A stretch of 64,000 nucleotides of DNA, taken from a virus. Within the stretch, counting starts at the first letter, position 1. The number at the start of each line of letters is the position of its first letter. The stretch spans positions 1-64,000 of IMG/VR virus record IMGVR_UViG_3300017774_004344; one strand, 5' to 3'. Below, piece by piece: positions 11,258 to 23,116 of this stretch. The notes beneath the pieces are model-generated. The model saw only the letters and a program-made list of their open reading frames with translations. It was not told the DNA's origin and made no database searches. The position numbers and the translations under genes were made by a program.

Positions 11258-11448
11258 TGCGAACTAGATGGGGGCACTGTCTAGTTTTACCCTTGTTGCG
11301 GTTAGTTTGGATAAAACATGGGGAATAGATGCCGGGAGTAAAAGTTCAGTCGTTGTTGGGCTGCTATAGCGAAACCCTTGGGACTTGGCCCATTTGAGCA
11401 GAGACTGCTCAAGGTCGAAGCATTCTCCGAGGGTGGCGTGGTGGTTGT

Positions 11449-13490: not shown

Positions 13491-14172
13491 TCAAGGGTTT
13501 GTATGAATGAAAACTGTACCTTCAGGGCTTTTCACCACTTTCTCTACCCTAAGGGGTGTGTTCCTTGGTGAAATATGCTCTTGCTGATCCTGAAACTCCT
13601 CCGGAGCATACCTGCTGGCGTTCCTAAACTCTTTACTACGCGAAATTATAATGACAGGAACACTTCCTGCTTGGTTTGCAAACATATCAGCTTGTTCTCT
13701 ATCAGCACTAAAAGAACCGAACCCCTCATCGTTAAAAATTTTCGTCTGTTGAACCTTTCTCAGTAAACCAGCAGCCGTCTCCGGGTCTAGGTCCATGCCC
13801 CTGTACATTGTCACTCCTTTGGTATTTCGTGGCAACTTACTCAATGCCTCGTCCATTAGCTTAACTTGGCCCTTCTCTTCATCCGTGAGAGGACCCTTCG
13901 TCAGTCCACGAAGCTTCCAGTTTGTATTCAGCATACTTGCAGTTTCCATACTTCCCCCGGTCATATAGTTCACTAGGGTCTTTTCCTCTCCCTGAGAGAG
14001 GGGTTTAGGTTTCTGGTGGGGTGTTTTTCCTGCCGGAAGCTGCTCTTGCAGGGTAGCTAAGGCTTCACGGTCTCTTCGCGCCTTGTCCCTCCAGCGTTTA
14101 GCATAAGCGTGGTCTCCTGTTCGAGTTTGATACGCTTCTGCCCCTCCGCTTCTTTTATACTCTTTTTCAGCT
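13491..14172 (-). CDS. ADP-ribosyltransferase (VIP2/Alt-like, R-S-E class) domain; frame is open well upstream of the called start at 13973
   Basis: YRG...GFGSFS...QDQQE motifs; the upstream in-frame sequence reads ...REALATLQEQLPAGK...PLSQGEEKTLVNY. Confidence 0.8.
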
Positions 14173-14377
14173 TAGTAATTTTCTTACGTACCTCCTTAAG
14201 GTCTAACTCCTCCTCCGTGCCTTTTCTACATTCTCCCCCTGTTCCATATGCAGTTCCATTAGGGCGAACGCAACGGGTGAAGTCGTAAGTTTCTCTTTCA
14301 GCGAAATTCACCCCCTGTAGTTCACTCAGGAGTTGAGAATAAGTGGCAAGTGCCTCTTCAGAAATGTATCCTTTCAT
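14057..14377 (-). CDS. leader-family protein (RCVRPNG motif); likely N-terminal part of the ART gene
   Basis: MKGYISEEALATYSQLL...NFAERETYDFTRCVRPNGTAYGTGGECRKG. Confidence 0.65.
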   Translation of the reverse strand: MKGYISEEALATYSQLLSELQGVNFAERETYDFTRCVRPNGTAYGTGGECRKGTEEELDLKEVRKKITKLKKSIKEAEGQKRIKLEQETTLMLNAGGTRREETVKP

Positions 14378-14614
14378 TTTTCGACTATGAGTCGTTGCTT
14401 CTTCAGCCCTCTGCTTCACTAGCGCCGCTCTAATAGTCTCTTTGTCCGGCACCCTAGCTTTTTTCAAGGCGGCAGCGAATTGTTCCTTGGCAGCCTTCGA
14501 CCGTATCCCGCCACCGTGCTCCGCTGCTACACTGTTGCGAATGTTAGCATGCTCCATCATCATGTTCGCCAAGTGTTGCCCTTTCAACGGTTTAGGGGTT
14601 GCCGCCTCCCCCTG

Positions 14615-15838
14615 TTACTTTCCCGCTGCTCTTTCTTCTACACGCTGTTTCGGAGTCATCGTTTGAGCTTTCAAACCTGCAATAGCTGCCGCCTGCTCTT
14701 TCAGCTTCTTGCTCAGAGGGTCATTACGACCTACTTTTCCACCACCTTTGACAATTTCGTCAATCTCGTTAGAAGTTTCCAGCAGGTCGGACTTTAACTT
14801 ACCGAGTTTACCCTCCGCCTCTCTTCGGTCAATTTCCTTCCTCAAGTTATCCTTTCGAGAAGTTGTCTTTGCTCTGTTCCATTCCGTCTCAAGGTCTTCC
14901 TGAGAAAGGGCCTTTAAACGGTCCGAAGACAACTTAAGAGGGCGGCCCATTTCATCGCGAATAGCGTTCGGAGTTTCTGGGCGGTCGGCAATAATTCCCT
15001 TAACTTCAGCCTGACTGCGCAGAATGCCGGGGACTGGATCTTTAATGGGCTTCGATGGTACTGGTGCCGTAGCGATTTCTCCCGAACTGCCTCCTCGGCC
15101 CCCTACCTTCTCTTTTAAATCGGGATATTCTGCCAGAACGTTAGGGGGGACGGTTTTTCCCAAGGTAATGGCAGCCTGAACACGTAGCTTATGCATATCG
15201 CCTGTAGCTGCTGATATAAACTCAGGGGTACCGGGATTCAATCCTGCTTGTTCAGCTAATTTTATTCTTTCTGAAACTGTGCCATCACCTCCAGACGGAG
15301 GAAGCCCTTTATTTCCTTTCTTATTCCACTCTTCAATTGCTTTCCGTCTTTCTTCAGCCCTGTAACTATTATACTGTTCTTTTGACATCTCGTGTGGTTG
15401 TACATTCGCAGAAGCTAGTGTCTTAGAAGTTTCTCCCGAACTTTTACTACTCTCCTTGGTTTCTTTACCAAAGACACCCCCTGAACTTGTTACAATCTTT
15501 TCCCCCTTCGGAAGCATCTGTTGCAACTGAGAGAGGGCATCGTGCTCTTCCTTCTCTGCAGGGGTGCCCTTGCGGCAGGTTCCTCCGGTGCCGTAGGCAG
15601 TGCCATTGGGGCGAACGCAGCGGGTGTAATCGTAATTTTCAATATACTCCCCTCGAACCTCACCAAAGTCAGCAACGTTGCCAGACCAAACATCGCCCTG
15701 AGTGGCGCCAGGATTGATTCCAAGTTCAGAGAAAGTCTGCAGTCCGGCCGAATCCGGAAGGGCAGAAGTTTCGTAACCTGCTTCTCGCATCAATTCGAGA
15801 AACTTTTCGGCTGAGTCAGGGGTGAAAGAACCGTGCAT
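14615..15838 (-). CDS. leader-family protein with unknown C-terminal region
   Basis: MHGSFTPDSAEKFLELM...DFGE...YDYTRCVRPNGTAYGTGGTCRKG. Confidence 0.8.
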   Translation of the reverse strand: MHGSFTPDSAEKFLELMREAGYETSALPDSAGLQTFSELGINPGATQGDVWSGNVADFGEVRGEYIENYDYTRCVRPNGTAYGTGGTCRKGTPAEKEEHDALSQLQQMLPKGEKIVTSSGGVFGKETKESSKSSGETSKTLASANVQPHEMSKEQYNSYRAEERRKAIEEWNKKGNKGLPPSGGDGTVSERIKLAEQAGLNPGTPEFISAATGDMHKLRVQAAITLGKTVPPNVLAEYPDLKEKVGGRGGSSGEIATAPVPSKPIKDPVPGILRSQAEVKGIIADRPETPNAIRDEMGRPLKLSSDRLKALSQEDLETEWNRAKTTSRKDNLRKEIDRREAEGKLGKLKSDLLETSNEIDEIVKGGGKVGRNDPLSKKLKEQAAAIAGLKAQTMTPKQRVEERAAGK

Positions 15839-15948
15839 AACATTTACCTTGCATACAGTATCTTACCCTTTCTACCTTGCAGAAACAAGCCAGGGAACCG
15901 AACCAGGCGATTCGATTTACCGCCCTTTGCGCAGCAAAGACCGCCCTT

Positions 15949-16440
15949 TCACAAATCCGCTATCTTGCTCTGCTCTTTCCTCAATCGCTTCACAAGCACT
16001 CTCAAAGTGTCCAGGCCGTTCTTCGCTTCCACCGAACTTTGTAGTTTCCGTTGTAAACTCAAGATCTCATCCATTGTATCTTTGAACCACTGGTCCCTCT
16101 GCTTCGGTGTAAGCCCAGCAAAGGGTAAGTTGACACGACTCATATCGTACTCGTTCGCTTTTGAAGGCAAGGAACTTCGCAACTTAACCATTTGCTCCTC
16201 GTTTGCCTTTAACTCCGTTACCAACCGCTGAAGGTTCGAGAGATTAACACCGCTCTTTATAAACTTTTCAATCTCCGCTTCCAGGCCCCAAACTCTTTTC
16301 AAAGAGTCCCAAAAAGTTGGCGAACTTACGCTGTGAGCGAAGTTATATACTATACCTTCCTCTGCGAAGTTGGCTTCGTTCTCTTGAGAAACAAGTTTGT
16401 TGAAGGCATTTAGAGAGTCTTGAGAGAAAGATCCGATCAT
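15949..16440 (-). CDS. leader-family coiled-coil protein (lacks the Cys motif)
   Basis: MIGSFSQDSLNAFNKLVSQENEANFAEEGIVYNF. Confidence 0.7.
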   Translation of the reverse strand: MIGSFSQDSLNAFNKLVSQENEANFAEEGIVYNFAHSVSSPTFWDSLKRVWGLEAEIEKFIKSGVNLSNLQRLVTELKANEEQMVKLRSSLPSKANEYDMSRVNLPFAGLTPKQRDQWFKDTMDEILSLQRKLQSSVEAKNGLDTLRVLVKRLRKEQSKIADL

Positions 16441-16464
16441 TGGTCTTAGGGTTTCTAGTAAGGT

Positions 16465-16680
16465 TTACCCTCTTTTTTCTTCCTCCCGTATACACTCTTT
16501 CAACCCAGAGACATACTCTCTTAGCATTTGCGCTTGTCTCAAGTGTCTCGCATCACATGTCCTAAGGTGCAGAGACACGTGCCTATCTATTGCATCTAGG
16601 CAAGTTTTTATCACGGGGTTCCAAGGTTCCCTAATTTCCGTATTGTAGGATCGTCTCGAAGTTTCTTCAAAAGTGCTCAT
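16465..16680 (-). CDS. cyanophage-type hypothetical protein
   Basis: REPWNPVIK..LDAIDRH...A..LREYV..LK. Confidence 0.6.
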   Translation of the reverse strand: MSTFEETSRRSYNTEIREPWNPVIKTCLDAIDRHVSLHLRTCDARHLRQAQMLREYVSGLKECIREEEKRG

Positions 16681-16762
16681 TGTTTTCTCCCGTCTCTGGA
16701 AGCTTGGCCAACGCTTTCAGGCCAGAGGCCATATGGTCTATTTTGCTATTTCGATCACAAAC

Positions 16763-16921
16763 TCAGTAAGCCATAAGGGAGTAAACTTCCTCGGTGCTTA
16801 ACCCGCCGCTTTCCTCCACAGCTCTCAGAATCCGGTCTGCTTTCCCCTCTGCTTCGGGGGTGCCTTGGCGAATGAGTTTCTTTCTCTCAATCATTGCCCT
16901 TAGGTTCTTGCTTTGGTTCAT
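16763..16921 (-). CDS. 52-aa protein coupled to the upstream kinase
   Basis: ATGA overlap with the kinase stop; MNQSKNLRAMIERKKLIRQGTPEAEGKADRILRAVEESGGLSTEEVYSLMAY*. Confidence 0.6.
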   Translation of the reverse strand: MNQSKNLRAMIERKKLIRQGTPEAEGKADRILRAVEESGGLSTEEVYSLMAY

Positions 16922-17703
16922 TGCTCTAATCTCGATAAATCTTTTAGGTAGGCTTCTGCAATTTCAATCCTCTTGGCTTTCGCTGCTTTGCTGGTTGAAC
17001 GACCTAGAGTAGTGTAAGCATTTAGGTGCCTATTTACAACTTGAAAGTAAGGGTCGGAGGCCAACTCGGGATTGCCCCATCCAACCAACTTTGCAATTTT
17101 GGAAAGATCCTGCATTACGCGGGAAGGCTGCTTAGAAACTGGAACGCTTAAGCCAAAGTCTACCAACTTCACGTTATTACCATCAACAAGAAATTGCTGT
17201 GAGTGTGCATCCCCGTGGGCAAACCCCATATTATGCAAGTCTCGAAGGGCATACCCGGCTTTCTTGGCTTGGGCTGCGTTCATCATAGGCTCGTTTTCAC
17301 CCCTAGTGTAAGTTTCCCAGAGAGGAGAACCCTTGGCAACATCCATTTCAATGTGAGTATCGCTACTTGAACGAATACTTGGAGAGTGACCCAACTTCCC
17401 CATTTTCGTGGCCAATTCAACTTCATAAGGACCAAACTCACCCCACCTTCCGCCTTCGCCCTTGAACAAAGTTTTCACAACCCTCTCTCCATCGGGACTC
17501 ATTGAAACTTTTCCGTTGTTGCCTTGGGCTAGAACCTTCCATTCAGAGTAAGGGACTTTTATCTCTAGAGATTCTCTCAAGTTTTCTAGACCCTTGCCCG
17601 CATAAGGAGGCAATATAGCCGAGCAGCGTTTGTACTTTGAAATACAAGCCTTCGCGCAACTTTTACCCTTTGAACACTTTTTCGGTTCAACTGGTTTATT
17701 CAT
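16918..17703 (-). CDS. protein kinase (RIO/Bud32-like fold) with N-terminal Cys4 motif
   Basis: AQGNNGKV, VVK, HGDAHSQQ, VDFGLS; N-terminus CSKGKSCAKACISKYKRC. Confidence 0.8.
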   Translation of the reverse strand: MNKPVEPKKCSKGKSCAKACISKYKRCSAILPPYAGKGLENLRESLEIKVPYSEWKVLAQGNNGKVSMSPDGERVVKTLFKGEGGRWGEFGPYEVELATKMGKLGHSPSIRSSSDTHIEMDVAKGSPLWETYTRGENEPMMNAAQAKKAGYALRDLHNMGFAHGDAHSQQFLVDGNNVKLVDFGLSVPVSKQPSRVMQDLSKIAKLVGWGNPELASDPYFQVVNRHLNAYTTLGRSTSKAAKAKRIEIAEAYLKDLSRLEQ

Positions 17704-17787
17704 TTTGTTTCCTCAGGTTGGAAAAGATTGCACCACCCTCCGTAAAAACGAACCTTTCACCGCTGTACACTTTGTTCATGTGTTTGC

Positions 17788-18507
17788 TCAAGAGAAGGTC
17801 CACCCCCAGCAATGTCCGTCACTGGGAACGAAGATACGTGGGTTGAAGTTCGTGTAGCTGTATAGCAAGTTCTTACCTGCACCCATAGCTCGCCTGCTCC
17901 AGCCTCCATTTTTCAGATCCAACTCGCCGTAAGGGTCGTTCACAAACCAACCCTTTTCGTTGTAGCCTCTGATAACTACGAAATGCCCCCCTCCAGAAGG
18001 CTTAGAAACGGGACCATGGTGCAATGCCCCTACTGCTACTGGTTTCTGCTTATTGAGCTCAGCTTTTATTTGTGCTATGCTCAAATTCTTAGAGAAGCTC
18101 GCCCCAGTATACCCAAGCTGCTTCATAGCATCGTAATGGGGTTGTCTCTCAGTGGTATCCCCGTACCTTTTAACAATGTTCACGTAAGTTGTATCGTCTT
18201 TGATTCCCCCGATACCAAGGAAAGCAAGACACATTGCGATAGAGGAGCTTTGGCACTCTCTCCAACCCTCGGGCCCATTATCCTTTTGATCGAAGAAAGG
18301 AACATTCAAATTCAATTGACTGAGAACTACTTGGGCCTTGGTGCGATACACTCGAACCCAGTTCGCCTCGTCCGAAAAAAGACTCGCATCTGAAGCCTGT
18401 ATCTTTTGCGCAAACTCCAGCATGCTCTCTCTGTGCTTAGAGTTGGCTTTATCGTAGTTTTCTACAAAGTCTAAAAACTTTTCTGGGGTGAACTGTGCCA
18501 TTTTCAC
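17788..18507 (-). CDS. peptidase C39-like protein (probable endolysin)
   Basis: VPFFDQKDN...RECQSSSIAM...GGGHFVVIRGY...VNDPYG (Cys-His-Asp). Confidence 0.75.
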   Translation of the reverse strand: MKMAQFTPEKFLDFVENYDKANSKHRESMLEFAQKIQASDASLFSDEANWVRVYRTKAQVVLSQLNLNVPFFDQKDNGPEGWRECQSSSIAMCLAFLGIGGIKDDTTYVNIVKRYGDTTERQPHYDAMKQLGYTGASFSKNLSIAQIKAELNKQKPVAVGALHHGPVSKPSGGGHFVVIRGYNEKGWFVNDPYGELDLKNGGWSRRAMGAGKNLLYSYTNFNPRIFVPSDGHCWGWTFS

Positions 18508-18536
18508 TTATCGGTCTGTCTGTCTGATTTTACCCT

Positions 18537-18881
18537 TCAATCTGGAAAGTCAGAGTCTAACATATCCCTTGCTGTCTTGAGTAGATTATCTGTGGTTTTA
18601 TCAGAAGATTTACCAACTTTTGCGCCCAAGCGATAGAACTTGTCGGCTTCATCATAGTACCCTGCATTCTCAAGTCGAATGCCTATTGAATTTAAAGTCG
18701 AAGAAGCTTCTGCTTTCGCAGCCTTACTATCTACTCGAGAGTTGTCAAAGTCCATGATTACAGGTCGGTTCTTACTTTCGTCCCACTTTAAGTTTCCGCC
18801 ATGTAAATCCTCGTGACTCACTCCGCGTTGATTCAGCAATAGAGAGGCTTTGTAAGCTTGTTGTGAGAAAGATCCGTACAT
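18537..18881 (-). CDS. leader-family protein fused to a kinase C-lobe only (deletion derivative or pseudokinase)
   Basis: MYGSFSQQAY runs directly into GVSHEDLHGGN...IMDFD; no Gly-loop or Lys N-lobe. Confidence 0.65.
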   Translation of the reverse strand: MYGSFSQQAYKASLLLNQRGVSHEDLHGGNLKWDESKNRPVIMDFDNSRVDSKAAKAEASSTLNSIGIRLENAGYYDEADKFYRLGAKVGKSSDKTTDNLLKTARDMLDSDFPD

Positions 18882-19546
18882 TACTTAACTTCTTCAGAAA
18901 ACTCGTTTCTCTCTACTTTACGAGCAACTTTAGCCAAACGTTGTAAGTAAGGGTTGTCTCCAAACTCTTTCCTCAAGCCTTCGGTATCCCCAGAGTCTAT
19001 CATTCTACGAATGGCGCTGCTACTTGATCCTGACGAATCTCGAGGTATAGTATCAGTTTTCACTCCCAAAGACTTTCCGATGGTTTCAAGAAACTTCTGC
19101 TGGTCCTCACCTAGCATGAACAAAACTTTTTCCTTGCCTGACTTTTCAGCGAGACTTTTCAGCACCGAAGCCGCAGAGCTACCTTGGACTAGCTTCACCC
19201 TGTTAAGGTCCACGCCTTCCTTTCTTAACACGGCCCTCAACATCTGTGCTCGGAAATCTTTATCAACATTCTTTTCACCCTTACCCAACACAACGTGAAC
19301 CACTGGGGCTTTCTCAAGCATTCCTTTAATTAGTTTAGCATGTCCGCTATGAGGAATGTTGAATCTGCCTTGTGTTACTGCGGCTTCGTAAGGGTAATCC
19401 TTTTGTTTCTCAGTTCCTTTGCGACATTTGCCGCCGGTTCCATAAGCTGTTCCGTTGGGGCGAACGCAACGAGTGTAATCCAGAGTTCCCGACAACATTT
19501 CTCTAATGGTGTCTAAAGAACTATTGGTGAAATTTCCGGTACTCAT
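18881..19546 (-). CDS. leader-family protein with HxGH nucleotidyltransferase (cytidylyltransferase/NMNAT-like) domain
   Basis: DYTRCVRPNGTAYGTGGKCRKG, then GRFNIPHSGH...GED...SSSAIR. Confidence 0.8.
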   Translation of the reverse strand: MSTGNFTNSSLDTIREMLSGTLDYTRCVRPNGTAYGTGGKCRKGTEKQKDYPYEAAVTQGRFNIPHSGHAKLIKGMLEKAPVVHVVLGKGEKNVDKDFRAQMLRAVLRKEGVDLNRVKLVQGSSAASVLKSLAEKSGKEKVLFMLGEDQQKFLETIGKSLGVKTDTIPRDSSGSSSSAIRRMIDSGDTEGLRKEFGDNPYLQRLAKVARKVERNEFSEEVK

Positions 19547-20067
19547 GACTTCGCTCCTGTGCAGATTGGAAGAGTCGGTTTTCTTTCAGCTTGGCCACCT
19601 TGCCGGCCTAAATCTTGAACTTGTTGCTGGGGTTGCTGGTCAAAGGTTTGACCTTGCTGTTGAGCCGCTTGTTGAGCTTGCTGAGTGGCCTGTCGCTGCT
19701 CAGTACTCCGGGGTTGTGGTTTTTGGCGGCAGTTTTCTTCAAAGGTTGCCGAGAGTTCTTCGAACATAGCAAGCCCTTTCAAGTCGCTGCGTGACCTGGG
19801 TCCTTGCTGCGGATTTCCCTTAGGGATTGAAACTGGGAAGATCGAGTCAGAATTTTGCTCTTTTTGTTCCCCTTCGTTCCCCTTTTGCCTTCCAGGTCGA
19901 CTGTCAATGTCCATGTTCTGCAGTCCTTGGGCAATTGTAGTTTTGTCTTCCCTTGAAAGTTTATCTGTTGTCTTCCCTGTTAAAAACTGTTCTTTCCAGC
20001 GAGACTCCCCGTAGAGCATTTCCTCTACGGCAGCTAAAGATTCTGTTGTAAACCCGGGAACATCCAT
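19543..20067 (-). CDS. Gln-rich leader-family protein
   Basis: PGFTTESLAAVEEML N-terminus; Q-rich tail. Confidence 0.6.
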   Translation of the reverse strand: MDVPGFTTESLAAVEEMLYGESRWKEQFLTGKTTDKLSREDKTTIAQGLQNMDIDSRPGRQKGNEGEQKEQNSDSIFPVSIPKGNPQQGPRSRSDLKGLAMFEELSATFEENCRQKPQPRSTEQRQATQQAQQAAQQQGQTFDQQPQQQVQDLGRQGGQAERKPTLPICTGAKS

Positions 20068-20135
20068 AGCTTTAAAGCAGTTAGGTTAAACCTTTTTAAG
20101 ACTTCTATTAACCGTTCATTCTTTTCATTAACTCT

Positions 20136-20438
20136 CTAATGGCTGTGGAAATTCTCTGTTGTTCCGTAGCTGTGACGGAGCATCGAAGCAACATCCTGAG
20201 CAACCTCCTCGGAATAACCCATCGACGTTAGCCGCTCCGCATGATCCTGCGACTTTCCTGCCATCGAAAGTGCTATGGCAATAGCCTGGTCTTGAGACTT
20301 AACAATCTTGCCTTCCTTTCCCTTCTTACCTCGTCCTGAATGCAACGGCTTCGGGTCGCCGTGCTTCCAGCGATGCATCACCTGGCCCAAGACATCTTTG
20401 TGAGCCGACATAGAGTGGTCTTCAGGAAGCTTCGACAT
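20136..20438 (-). CDS. small basic protein (DUF6496-like)
   Basis: VMHRWKHG...LHSG...VKSQDQAIAIALS. Confidence 0.6.
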   Translation of the reverse strand: MSKLPEDHSMSAHKDVLGQVMHRWKHGDPKPLHSGRGKKGKEGKIVKSQDQAIAIALSMAGKSQDHAERLTSMGYSEEVAQDVASMLRHSYGTTENFHSH

Positions 20439-20533
20439 TTACGTGCAACCGACTTACAAAGGTTTTACCCTTTATTCTAGGGGGCACTCTTTCTGTAGGA
20501 AAAGGGCGGAAAATCGTATTACCTTGTATCGGG

Positions 20534-20707
20534 TTAAAGGTAAGCCCCACCTAAGACAGCATCTTCACTCACGTCCCCCTTCTCTCGAAGCTTCATCGCA
20601 GCTTCAAGGTACGGGTTTGCACCGTCTCTAAGTTCCCCACGCCGTTCCTTGTATCGAGACATGAGTGCAATGTACTGTGCGTCGTTTTTTCCTGTGGTTC
20701 TTTTCAT
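20534..20707 (-). CDS. 57-aa protein coupled to the upstream kinase
   Basis: TAATG overlap; MKRTTGKNDAQYIALMSRYKERRGELRDGANPYLEAAMKLREKGDVSEDAVLGGAYL*. Confidence 0.6.
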   Translation of the reverse strand: MKRTTGKNDAQYIALMSRYKERRGELRDGANPYLEAAMKLREKGDVSEDAVLGGAYL

Positions 20708-22134
20708 TAAATCCCCTCGTAGAGTGTGTTAATCACTTCCATAGCTTGCGTATCACTTAGCTTAGCCCAAGCTCCCTCCTTATATTTCTTGTCGGGAGTT
20801 CGAAATCTGGTTTTAAGGACTTTATCTAAGTCCCCACCTTCTATCCCGAAACGTCGAAGTTTCTCGATGGCTCTCTCTTTGTTTGTGTACGCTTTGTAAG
20901 CTAACGGAGCGTCTTCTTTCAGGAATTCTAAGTAATGAGCTCTTTGCTTTGAAGGGATATTCTTTCTTTCAACGTCTGCAATCAGGTTTCCGCCGGGACC
21001 CCATGATGAAAAGGCTGAGTCTCCGCTTTCACCTTTTGGACCGGAAAAAGCACCCAATGCCTCTGCGAGAGCTGCTTTTGGGTTGTCTTGTGCCAGGCCC
21101 ATGTCAACGAATCGCCCCTTTCCTGTCTTATCTACCAGAACGTTGTACCCGTGCATATCGTTATGGGCAATCCCCATTCTATGTAAATCGGCCCGAGCTT
21201 TCCAATAGGCCTCGGCGCCATCTCTACTGAACTTCGTGCCTAACGGCTCTCCTTCAACTTTTGTCATAGCAATACGACCTTCTCTTAAGTCTACGACCCT
21301 AGATTTAAAGCGAGAGGGTTCACCTATATCCGCAGCAATCAACTTCGGCCCTAAGTCCGCTCTACCGACTTTATCTACGATAGCAGCTTCTGTTCGACTA
21401 ATTACACCTCTCTTAATAACTTCGCCGTTTGGACTTAAAATTGCTGTACCGTACATACCCGACCCTAGCACCTTAGCTTCCTTACTAAAAGTGCCGCCCC
21501 AACCGCCATATTCGGGGTCTCCTTGTCTTACGTGGTTGCTTTTTTCGATGTTAGAGTCTAATATAGCGGCTTTTTCTTCTTCTTGGGATAAACCAGCTGA
21601 GTTGACTTTCTTAGTGGTTTCCCTTGGGCTCCGGTGCTCCTCAAGAATGCTCCTGATGTCGTCCAGAACTTCCTTCTTCGTCGCTTTTGCTCCGCCACTT
21701 TGACCCTCACCGGACCCTGACCCCGACGCTCTTTGTTGTGGCAAAGCCGAGACTTTTGTGTTGGTAGCCGATGAAGGTTTCCGTTTGGCCAGGAGCTTAT
21801 TCACCTGCTCTCTCTGTTTATCATTCAGCCTCGGGTCGACCAAAATTTTCTTCAGTTCTTTAACTGGCAGCGACTTCACCCTAGCGGTCAAGCGCATCCT
21901 GCCGGGGGTCACTTTTTTCTCGGGTTCTTTCGCCTTTCCCCTTATGTTGGGGATAATCTCTTTGACTTGCTCTGTTCCTTTGCGACACTTTCCTCCCGTA
22001 CCGTAGGCACTGCCGTCCTGTCTCACACAGCGCGTAAAGTCGTAAACTTCTTTTTCAGAAAAATTGAATGAATGTTGTTCTACAACCAGCGCCTCGTATG
22101 CTTGAAGAGCTTCGTTAGAGAAAAAATCTTTCAT
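20707..22134 (-). CDS. leader-family protein kinase
   Basis: NFSEKEVYDFTRCVRQDGSAYGTGGKCRKG; LGSGMYG, VIK, HNDMHGYN, VDMGLA. Confidence 0.85.
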   Translation of the reverse strand: MKDFFSNEALQAYEALVVEQHSFNFSEKEVYDFTRCVRQDGSAYGTGGKCRKGTEQVKEIIPNIRGKAKEPEKKVTPGRMRLTARVKSLPVKELKKILVDPRLNDKQREQVNKLLAKRKPSSATNTKVSALPQQRASGSGSGEGQSGGAKATKKEVLDDIRSILEEHRSPRETTKKVNSAGLSQEEEKAAILDSNIEKSNHVRQGDPEYGGWGGTFSKEAKVLGSGMYGTAILSPNGEVIKRGVISRTEAAIVDKVGRADLGPKLIAADIGEPSRFKSRVVDLREGRIAMTKVEGEPLGTKFSRDGAEAYWKARADLHRMGIAHNDMHGYNVLVDKTGKGRFVDMGLAQDNPKAALAEALGAFSGPKGESGDSAFSSWGPGGNLIADVERKNIPSKQRAHYLEFLKEDAPLAYKAYTNKERAIEKLRRFGIEGGDLDKVLKTRFRTPDKKYKEGAWAKLSDTQAMEVINTLYEGI

Positions 22135-22161: not shown

Positions 22162-22169
22162 TTTTACCC
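22162..22169 (-). promoter_or_regulatory. putative late promoter GGGTAAAA (representative copy)
   Basis: Same motif recurs about 21-49 nt upstream of many genes; see findings. Confidence 0.65.
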
Positions 22170-22388
22170 TTGCGAGTCATTCAGGGGGAGTAGCCTTATT
22201 CCCTCTTCTTCAATAATATTCAACATCTGCTCTGAATAATGAGTGAGCCGAGACATTAGAGAAGAAGCTCTTTTAGCATAGTCTTCTAGCTCCCCCCTAC
22301 TCAAGGTAGATATTTGGTATTGCCCCATTGCATCGGCGGCTTCTTTTTCGAGTGGGTACTTTCGTAGTTTGTAAATCTTTTGCGTCAT
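22164..22388 (-). CDS. hypothetical protein
   Basis: 74 aa; ATGA-coupled to the sigma factor gene. Confidence 0.5.
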   Translation of the reverse strand: MTQKIYKLRKYPLEKEAADAMGQYQISTLSRGELEDYAKRASSLMSRLTHYSEQMLNIIEEEGIRLLPLNDSQG

Positions 22389-23116
22389 AGCACTGTTTCT
22401 AAAGAGCCGTGAGCTATGGCCTGAAGCTCATAAAATTTCTCAGCGGCCCATTCTCTTTCTTCCGGAGACATATCTCTGTTTTCGACATACTTAAGAACCA
22501 TATTCAGCTCGGACTCTGACAATCTTTTCATAGAATTTACAAGTTCAGGAGAAACAACGTAAGGTTTAACGTCGTCATCGTTGAAGATAAACTCTCGGGT
22601 CGTCCAGTCTTCTGGATTAGAGTCGTAGGAAACATGGTAGTTATGTGTGGCCATGTCTACCATCAAAATTTTCGACTCTGTTAAACCTAGCTCTTTGGCA
22701 ATTTCTTCGTAAGTTTTGTTTTGCTTGAGAAGTTCGTCAACCTGGGTTTTGTACTTGGCGACCCACCGTGGAGTTTTCACCATGCGAGAGTAATCTCTCA
22801 AAGCGTGTTGAATGTAACCTCGAGCAGTTCTCCAAGCGAAGGTGCTAAATTGAACTTTCTTGTTAGGCTCATATCGAGTTGCAGCTACGCACAAGGCGAA
22901 GTTCGCTATGGACTCAAGGTCTTCTTTTGTAAGAGAACCCGTATAACCACCCGTGGAGCACTTAGCCCCATAAGCAAGCCTACCCGCTATCCATTTATGT
23001 TCGCACACTAAACGTTGTTGCTCAGCAGAGAGTTCCGGGTATCGTCTGTGGCGTCTTTTCTTCATGTCAAGCCTCGCAACTTTGGCATTCGTTGTACGGG
23101 TTGTTTGAGTCTTCAT
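22385..23116 (-). CDS. RNA polymerase sigma factor (sigma70 family, SigF-like)
   Basis: EDLESIANFALCVAATRYEP...FSTFAWRTARGYIQHALRDYSRMVKTPR; HTH EEIAKELG. Confidence 0.85.
   Translation of the reverse strand: MKTQTTRTTNAKVARLDMKKRRHRRYPELSAEQQRLVCEHKWIAGRLAYGAKCSTGGYTGSLTKEDLESIANFALCVAATRYEPNKKVQFSTFAWRTARGYIQHALRDYSRMVKTPRWVAKYKTQVDELLKQNKTYEEIAKELGLTESKILMVDMATHNYHVSYDSNPEDWTTREFIFNDDDVKPYVVSPELVNSMKRLSESELNMVLKYVENRDMSPEEREWAAEKFYELQAIAHGSLETVL

Follow-up and report, generated by a model that had tools for sequence, protein, structure and literature searches.

The 64,000 nucleotides (nt) analysed here (the window; positions 1 to 64,000 of IMG/VR virus record IMGVR_UViG_3300017774_004344) are the start of a 91.6-kb viral contig with a completeness of ~40% (CheckV), from an uncultured phage related to Synechococcus phage S-CBWM1, and carry an island of genes whose products share a module of ~55 residues. 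The module consists of a leader, a short spacer that ends with an F-[SA]-E element, and a cassette with two cysteines, and it is joined to bodies as different as protein kinases, an NMNAT-like enzyme, an ADP-ribosyltransferase (ART) and coiled coils. That one tag sits on many unrelated bodies is established. We consider the module to be probably a tag for head cargo, since three independent lines (virion association, an element shared with the head-maturation protease, and timing) point to the prohead.

Architecture and distribution of the module

Four near-identical two-cysteine cassettes, which an earlier note on this DNA had placed to within 3 nt, lie on the minus strand at positions 14219-14287, 15566-15634, 19415-19483 and 21976-22044. 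Their pairwise nucleotide identity is 64-75%, with 2-5 amino-acid changes per 23 residues, and third codon positions hold 89 of the 120 pairwise differences. The cassette is therefore conserved as protein, as that note had held: strong purifying selection acts on the peptide, and the copies are old rather than a recent DNA repeat. In an alignment of the window copies with 15 from IMG/VR contigs, leader, F-S-E element and cassette form a single ~55-residue unit. The leader, with the consensus M-x-G-x-F-S-x-E-A-L-x-x-[YF]-x-x-L, is followed by a short spacer with [DN]-F-[SA]-E at its end, by two or three further residues and then by the cassette, [YL]-D-[FY]-T-R-C-V-[RK]-x-[DN]-G-x-A-Y-G-T-x-G-x-C-R-K-G, in which D, R, C, V, G, Y, G, T, G, C, R, K and G are invariant throughout the set. 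An AlphaFold2 model of the tagged open reading frame (ORF) at 14057-14587, run with a 50-sequence alignment (predicted template modelling score 0.32), has a helix at residues 6-19 (predicted local distance difference test, pLDDT, 83-88), a small beta unit over the cassette (pLDDT 53-72) and then a long helix.

The leader stands at a methionine in eight ORFs of the genome, the eighth at genome position 67672, outside the window. A leader-only hidden Markov model (HMM) made from 110 metagenomic homologues is significant for the ORF starts at 14374, 22134, 16440 and 15838 (E 5e-9 to 6e-4) and weak (E 0.6-2) for those at 18881, 20067 and 67672. The pattern G-x-[FI]-[STN]-x-x-[SA]-[LAYF] has six matches in 36,893 coding-strand residues, all of them 1-4 residues past a methionine. 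All seven N-termini that the earlier note had quoted for its seven leader ORFs are present, with the correction that the ART ORF is not started by a leader. The one beginning MKGYISEE is internal: its methionine lies within a 176-residue ORF with a TTG start, behind a conserved 70-residue domain. The internal leader suspected in the ORF at 20136 has held up, GYSEEVAQDV being a true leader homologue that follows a DUF6496 domain.

No Pfam, NCBIfam or PHROG family covers the module, a profile search of the PDB gave chance-level matches alone (a lyase, E 0.06; IF3, E 1.1), the ESM Atlas returned no usable match, and module-bearing proteins are labelled hypothetical in every source. Judged by its sequence, the module is an undescribed domain family.

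A search of 1.84 billion proteins with a 19-sequence tag profile, with clusters counted as representatives at 50% identity, found the tag in 865 metagenomic protein clusters at E<=1e-3 and in 399 at E<=1e-10, nearly all matches covering residues 1-55. Positions and partners were counted in the best 150 of the 865 clusters. The cassette begins within the first 60 residues in 137 of these 150, as expected of the shared N-terminal leader that the earlier note had described; that description is too narrow, in that leader and cassette also occur internally and 18 of the 150 proteins have a second, internal cassette with F-S-E before it and no leader. Among the 119 proteins with a body of appreciable size, BLAST sorts the final 130 residues into 56 clusters. 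(When entire C-terminal parts were clustered by single linkage, 85 proteins were lumped via common linker motifs and second cassettes, and clustering of the final 130 residues was used instead.) Pfam recognises an ART in eight of the 150 homologues, a kinase in about five, DUF6496 in three, and CTP_transf_like and DUF3626 in one each, and many tagged proteins have no enzyme body, being basic or coiled-coil proteins of 70-150 residues. The modular, polymorphic architecture read from the window is thus real and widespread, and the HMM search and C-terminal tabulation that had been suggested as a check turned up neither a single fixed C-terminal domain nor a match to a characterised family.

Intact tag-ART genes (306 and 333 residues) and tag-kinase genes (511 and 746 residues) occur on IMG/VR contigs. 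Tag matches number 15 in G001 (an uncultured phage of 277 kb, 98% complete), five in this genome and two in Synechococcus phage S-CBWM1, and several contigs bearing the tag are 240-280 kb long. Among 185,579 prokaryotic species, one genome each, matches are confined to five short contigs of metagenome-assembled genomes, and the module is therefore in effect phage-only.

Other recurrent parts accompany the module. An element G-x-M-R-[LV]-T-x-[RK]-[IV]-K-x-L...[ED]-L-K-K-[IV]-L-x-D-P-R-[LV]-x-x-[KR]-Q-R, also shuffled, comes after the cassette on unrelated C-termini (20707-22134, residues ~75-115; L038:5618-7027; L038:9444-11048). Several tagged proteins (L038:5618-7027, L038:13082-14500 and P0009) end in an unnamed domain, F/W-R-G-V...F-A-[DE]-Q-F-[KR]-G...H-Y-P-G-x-G-I-[FY]-G-N-G-[ST]-Y-A-A, without a Pfam match, and one G001 copy of it follows a 113-residue tag-only ORF in the same frame. 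A tagged 549-residue protein of G001 (L038:16656-18305) has an H-E-x-x-H motif and possibly a zinc metalloprotease body; it too has no Pfam match.

Virion association, head protease and timing

The evidence suggests that proteins carrying the module are loaded into the head and delivered to the host, and it is strongest in S-CBWM1 (Aokuangvirus), the sole isolate in the phage collection in which tblastn finds the cassette. Its NMNAT starts with leader and cassette and is 43% identical to the window protein encoded at 18881-19546. In the passages of PMC10665884 and PMC9602691 that cite Xu et al. 2018, this NMNAT is reported in purified virions, and the citing passages count three kinases (APH, ChoK and RIO-like) in the virion proteome. 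All three kinases have an N-terminal motif of four cysteines (Cys4), C-x2-G-K-x-C-x3-C-[IV]-x5-C. In the ChoK and RIO-like kinases it is encoded in frame between an earlier ATG and the annotated start, close to the latter, and these two annotated starts appear to be too far downstream, so that the motif is lost. With the tagged NMNAT and the Cys4 kinases, every non-structural enzyme reported in S-CBWM1 virions therefore has one of two Cys motifs. Other tagged S-CBWM1 proteins are gp165 and gp106.

The Cys4 motif, which would be a second type of tag, also heads the Bud32/RIO-like kinase of the window (16918-17703, minus strand; Pfam/NCBIfam and motif search), where it reads C-x2-GK-x-C-x3-C-I-x5-C, and a 520-residue hypothetical protein. 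It is found as well in the S-CBWM1 "virion structural protein" gp023 and in the 541-residue homologue of gp023 in this genome. Besides the window kinase, the sites are at genome positions ~65831 and ~72595 and at S-CBWM1 positions 117842, 118757, 70410, 66797 and 132546.

The second line concerns the head-maturation protease, which matches phrog_976 at ~1e-64 and adjoins a Mu-type portal. Its C-terminal element, G-T-L-[ED]-F-[SA]-E-G-E-T, equals the consensus joint of the tag, D-F-S-E-G-E-T, and is conserved in five genomes (S-CBWM1, G001 and three further tag-bearing contigs). A six-frame search of the whole of G001 for F-x-E-G-E-[TS] found four places, namely three tag genes and the homologue of the head-maturation protease; in S-CBWM1 the single place is the protease, and the reversed control of the search gave no match. 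Prohead proteases commonly cut themselves and their substrates at one motif. On the simplest reading F-[SA]-E would be a cleavage or docking element; T4 gp21 cuts after hydrophobic-x-Glu (PMC7411985).

Timing is the third line. Five island genes have GGGTAAA 21-29 nt ahead of their start codons, and the motif also precedes tail-fibre-like genes and a virion-structural homologue in this genome, which bears out the earlier claim that tagged and structural genes have an upstream motif in common. The exact nine-base form AGGGTAARA has eight matches in the window where 1.8 are expected, every one on the minus (coding) strand. One promoter-like copy, AGGGTAAAA, is placed 28 nt upstream of the tagged kinase gene (22162-22170, minus strand), and the motif search gave further copies on the same strand at 20463-20471, 18528-18536, 16463-16471, 15861-15869 and 11285-11293. 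The occurrence of AGGGTAAAA at 17661-17669 was dismissed as a promoter, as it lies within a kinase ORF and encodes K-G-K-S of the Cys4 motif. In S-CBWM1, GGGTAAA precedes both tagged genes by 24-28 nt, as it does the genes for portal, protease and endolysin. The motif may be read by the phage sigma factor encoded directly upstream of the island (22385-23116, minus strand; phrog_351, 2e-22; 52% identity to its S-CBWM1 counterpart).

In the mechanism that we propose, the island, from the sigma factor gene to psbA, would encode a polymorphic family of late-made virion cargo proteins. Each would carry an address module made of an acidic amphipathic leader helix, the F-[SA]-E element and a basic two-cysteine hairpin with the pattern D-[FY]-T-R-C-V-R-x-x-G-x-A-Y-G-T-G-G-x-C-R-K-G, followed by a flexible linker rich in lysine and glutamate and then by an interchangeable body (kinase, NMNAT-like, ART, coiled coil or another domain). 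The tagged genes would be transcribed along with the head genes from GGGTAAA-type promoters, and the module would dock the protein in the prohead. There the Mu-type head-maturation protease would cut after F-S-E, removing the leader, separating fused units and leaving the cysteine hairpin at the new N-terminus. The cargo would exit with the DNA and act on host proteins or on NAD metabolism. Variety in the family comes from gene fusion and fission among paralogues, of which the split ART, an in-frame TAA, a deleted cassette and the two-cassette proteins of relatives are instances. Docking, cleavage, ejection and the host targets of the tagged proteins are steps that we only infer.

A more specific version is put forward tentatively: a two-stage, programmable loading peculiar to S-CBWM1-like and related jumbo cyanophages. 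The leader would dock to a scaffold part of the Mu-type protease, the cut at F-S-E would separate multi-unit polyproteins, and the exposed cysteine hairpin (or Cys4) would be a new small domain that retains the cargo in the head and guides it through the tail. Were this true, sequence would suffice to predict virion cargo, and ~55 added residues would allow foreign proteins to be loaded.

Cyanophage virion proteomes repeatedly show kinases and NMNAT-like enzymes, which their authors cannot tell apart as cargo or contaminant (PMC10665884, PMC9602691). A tag common to exactly the virion enzymes and linked to the head protease would decide which proteins the phage delivers on infection. If the module is such a tag, abundant aquatic phages would hold hundreds of clusters of host-modifying enzymes that act early, a large unnamed arsenal with up to 15 members per genome, and the loading signal would lie outside the T4 and MuF models. 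S-CBWM1 infecting Synechococcus sp. CBW1002 is a cultured system in which the idea can be tested directly.

Several points weigh against a head-cargo tag. The virion evidence for tagged proteins comes by analogy, from papers citing work on S-CBWM1 orthologues and not from this phage, and, according to passages in PMC10665884 and PMC9602691, CsCl-purified virion proteomes can carry abundant non-packaged proteins. The virion kinases of S-CBWM1 use the N-terminal Cys4 motif and not leader plus cassette, which speaks against a strict N-terminal-leader reading. NMNAT-like proteins are also virion-associated in T4-like cyanophages (PMC9602691), in which tblastn found no cassette, and the tag is therefore not the sole route into virions. 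The present contig, at ~40% completeness, holds no protease gene, so the protease link is drawn from relatives. The module is much longer and more conserved than the capsid targeting sequence (CTS) of T4 and has invariant Cys and Gly, and leader plus cassette can be internal (after DUF6496 or the 70-residue domain) or duplicated; given this size, conservation and internal position, the module may have an activity of its own, e.g. nucleic-acid or metal binding. Finally, the AlphaFold2 confidence for the cysteine hairpin is only moderate.

Alternative readings and known systems

The alternative that survives best, which we nevertheless think unlikely, is that the module works as a domain in the infected cell. 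There it would recruit enzymes to one host target (e.g. RNA polymerase, the ribosome, DNA or the surface of the thylakoid) or attach to nucleic acid via the basic cysteine hairpin, and it would have no role in encapsidation. Such a domain would account for strong conservation over 55 residues, with invariant D, R, C, G, Y and C, which is beyond the needs of a T4-type targeting peptide, and for copies that are internal or repeated; the Lys-rich linkers after the module could likewise bind nucleic acid. However, it leaves unexplained why, outside the tags, F-x-E-G-E-[TS] occurs in the head-maturation protease alone, why a tagged NMNAT is in virions and why tagged, portal and protease genes have an upstream motif in common, and no homologue was found in cyanobacterial genomes.

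It is improbable that the cysteine hairpin serves as a redox or metal switch, or as an element for oligomerisation, and so silences potentially toxic enzymes in the producing cell, with the leader as an inhibitory propeptide and virion association as incidental. The two invariant cysteines, 13 residues apart, and the separate Cys4 motif on sister kinases would suit a switch, and ART and kinase bodies could harm the producing cell. Yet many tagged proteins are without an enzyme body (70-150 residues, basic or coiled-coil), no observation directly favours inhibition, and the protease element and the late-type motif are left unaccounted for.

We give very little credence to a system akin to ribosomally synthesised and post-translationally modified peptides, in which the leader peptide would be recognised by the C39-like peptidase of the island (compare the double-glycine leaders of bacteriocins and prochlorosins). 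A Peptidase_C39_2 gene does lie inside the island, and the leader is a short acidic helix that we take to be loosely like double-glycine leaders. The "cores", however, would be enzymes of 100-700 residues and not peptides, the C39-like protein matches an endolysin PHROG at 3e-54, and G001 has another lysin-like catalytic domain behind the same N-terminus; moreover, there is no conserved Gly-Gly site, and the island holds no modification enzymes and no (ABC) transporter. That the common N-termini are a functionless by-product of recent tandem duplication and recombination, as signs of fusion, fission, deletion and frameshift among neighbouring paralogues might be read, is hardly credible, being contradicted by the codon-position pattern (synonymous sites are near saturation and the peptide is kept) and by retention of the module in 865 diverged clusters on unrelated bodies.

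To return to the head-cargo tag, the system has the logic of T4 CTS cargo and of MuF toxins, yet lacks what defines them: the S77 protease and CTS similarity of the former and the MuF domain of the latter. T4 IPI-III and Alt have an N-terminal CTS of 10-20 residues that is removed by gp21 (PMC7411985, PMC3012670). Common to both systems is a short acidic amphipathic N-terminal leader on otherwise unrelated proteins, an ART among them. The T4 leader is cut by the prohead protease after hydrophobic-x-Glu (PMC7411985, PMC3012670), for which F-[SA]-E would be the candidate site here. T4 cargo is made late, loaded in the prohead and ejected with the DNA, whereas loading of the tagged proteins is only proposed. 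Unlike the CTS, to which it has no sequence similarity, the module has ~55 residues and a conserved two-cysteine hairpin that would stay on the mature protein, and it can be internal or repeated. The relatives have a Mu-type portal and the phrog_976 protease, not gp21/S77; PF03420 is absent from G000, G001 and S-CBWM1, and the control genomes likewise gave no match.

MuF polymorphic toxins (Jamet et al. 2017, PMC5576092) also combine a constant N-terminal part, thought to specify head association, with variable C-terminal toxin or enzyme domains including ARTs, and they too vary by recombination (PMC5576092). The constant part has 55 residues here against ~300 in MuF, a genome has up to 15 paralogues against one, and the phages concerned are lytic cyanophages rather than temperate phages, with no obvious immunity gene beside most members. 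No MuF match (SPP1 gp7, Phage_Mu_F) was found with Pfam in ten island proteins or in the 150 homologues, and a weak match to a PHROG "minor head protein" lies over the ART domain itself.

Polyvalent proteins (Iyer et al. 2017, PMC5512222) resemble the tagged proteins as virion-delivered combinations of host-modifying domains (ART, kinase, peptidase), and two tagged units are fused in relatives of the present genes. They differ in that here there is mostly one enzyme per protein, each with its own copy of the tag; cyanophages, Synechococcus and cysteine go unmentioned in the text of PMC5512222. The ejection proteins of giant phages (SPN3US, phiKZ-like; PMC7411985) are likewise several paralogous head-internal proteins, with propeptides that are thought to target the prohead and are cut after x-x-Glu (A-x-E) by the head protease. 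Those propeptides, unlike the module, are 110-130 residues long and are not a conserved domain family on enzymes, and no sequence relation was seen.

Layout and rearrangement of the island

The minus strand carries nearly every gene of the contig, in the order ribonucleotide reductase, phage sigma factor, tag island, psbA and tail-fibre-like genes. Megablast of the window against phage records gave no match; the island gene order is syntenic with that of S-CBWM1, and G001 has it as in the window.

All genes described below are on the minus strand. The gene at 20707-22134 encodes a 475-residue protein with leader, NFSE, the cassette at 21976-22044, a Lys-rich linker and a Bud32/RIO-like protein kinase (Pfam/NCBIfam domains); its homologue P0015 is 92% identical. 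The 100-residue product of 20136-20438 has a DUF6496-like domain followed by the internal leader, here a remnant, as alignment to relatives indicates: P0011, P0035 and P0073 align with its residues 1-99, its relatives run on into one or two cassettes, so that the window protein is truncated by comparison, and the G001 orthologue continues into a degenerate cassette. A leader-only protein (MDVPGFTTESLAAV) of 174 residues, with a Gln-rich body, no known domain and a syntenic orthologue in G001, is encoded at 19543-20067. The NMNAT/cytidylyltransferase-like enzyme of 18881-19546 (Pfam, PHROG, NCBIfam) has a short leader, the cassette at 19415-19483 and HxGH and SxxxxR motifs. In the 114-residue product of 18537-18881 the leader is joined directly to a domain like a kinase C-lobe (weak APH match); it is 51% identical to residues 166-266 of P0012, which has a full tag, whereas the window copy has no cassette.

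Farther along, 15949-16440 encodes leader, NFAE, a degenerate cassette that has lost both cysteines and a helical body (tag profile E 1.6e-6). The 407-residue protein of 14615-15838 has leader, a 45-residue insert, the cassette at 15566-15634 and a long charged body, and stops at TAA 14615-14617. The ORF at 14057-14587 (alternative start ATG 14374) begins with the 70-residue "HLANMM..NIR..AAEHGG" domain, followed by internal leader, NFAE, the cassette at 14219-14287 and a coiled coil.

The unrelated C-termini read by the earlier note proved correct for the kinases, the CTP_transf_like/NMNAT enzyme and the ART, except that the last is split from its tag by a frameshift. The R-S-E type ART (PF03496, 3e-6; 27 bits against a cut-off of 23.4) has YRG, SFS and QQE motifs visible in its translation. 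Its frame stays open between 14171 and 13491 (the called ORF, 13491-13973, has a GTG start) and shares 115 nt with the 3' end of the tagged ORF, 14057-14374. Homologues in which tag and ART are intact (eight fused proteins of 273-411 residues) align first to the frame of the tagged ORF and then to that of the ART, and the window therefore has a tag-ART gene split by a frameshift, which may stem from mutation, from misassembly or from programmed shifting.

A second break lies beyond the TAA at 14615-14617, past which the frame remains open to 14057; the TAA is conserved in the close relative L029. The 70 codons after it encode a domain that is the C-terminus of many tagged proteins, and 17 of 24 differences between window and L029 in this domain are at third positions. 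In L029 the 70-residue piece is a separate ORF in another frame, which indicates that it is translated on its own; in the window it is fused ahead of the internal leader and cassette. Readthrough of the TAA is unlikely, as a 1-nt indel in L029 puts the downstream ORF out of frame, and the 91.6-kb contig holds no tRNA, hence no suppressor tRNA, to account for it. In the relative P0017 the NMNAT-like gene is joined with the tagged unit that follows it, and a single protein results. To judge from these alignments, the family evolves by fusion, fission and deletion at joints marked by F-S-E.

Such joints also occur at the ends of genes. One is at the extreme C-terminus of the NMNAT-like protein (...N-E-F-S-E-E-V-K-stop; 18881-18904) and another (D-F-S-E...F-D-F-T-R) near the end of the ORF that precedes a Cys4 kinase outside the window, at genome position ~65920; both look like remnants of former fusions. 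L029 is without the window's tagged ORF and ART beside psbA. At L029:4752-5905 psbA comes directly after the 70-residue ORF and seems interrupted after ~77 codons by a region encoding a 240-residue protein.

The island also encodes a Peptidase_C39_2/endolysin-like protein (17788-18507; phrog_10051). Its N-terminal ~60 residues, M-x-Q-F-T-P-E-K-F-L-D-F-V..., are kept in the G001 counterpart (L038:7282-8010), and the catalytic domain behind them is C39-like in the window and lysozyme-like in G001. In its first residues the window protein is loosely like the leader variant that gene 14615-15838 carries. Both intact kinase genes have a small ORF behind them, which begins before the kinase stop codon is passed and so overlaps it (16763-16921, 52 residues; 20534-20707, 57 residues); neither has homologues among the 150 tag proteins, and both could be kinase partners or inhibitors. 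Outside the window, at 74-77 kb of the genome (L031:11094-14282), two adjacent paralogues of the terminase large subunit (587 and 468 residues) are followed by PhoH and then by the 541-residue virion-structural homologue.

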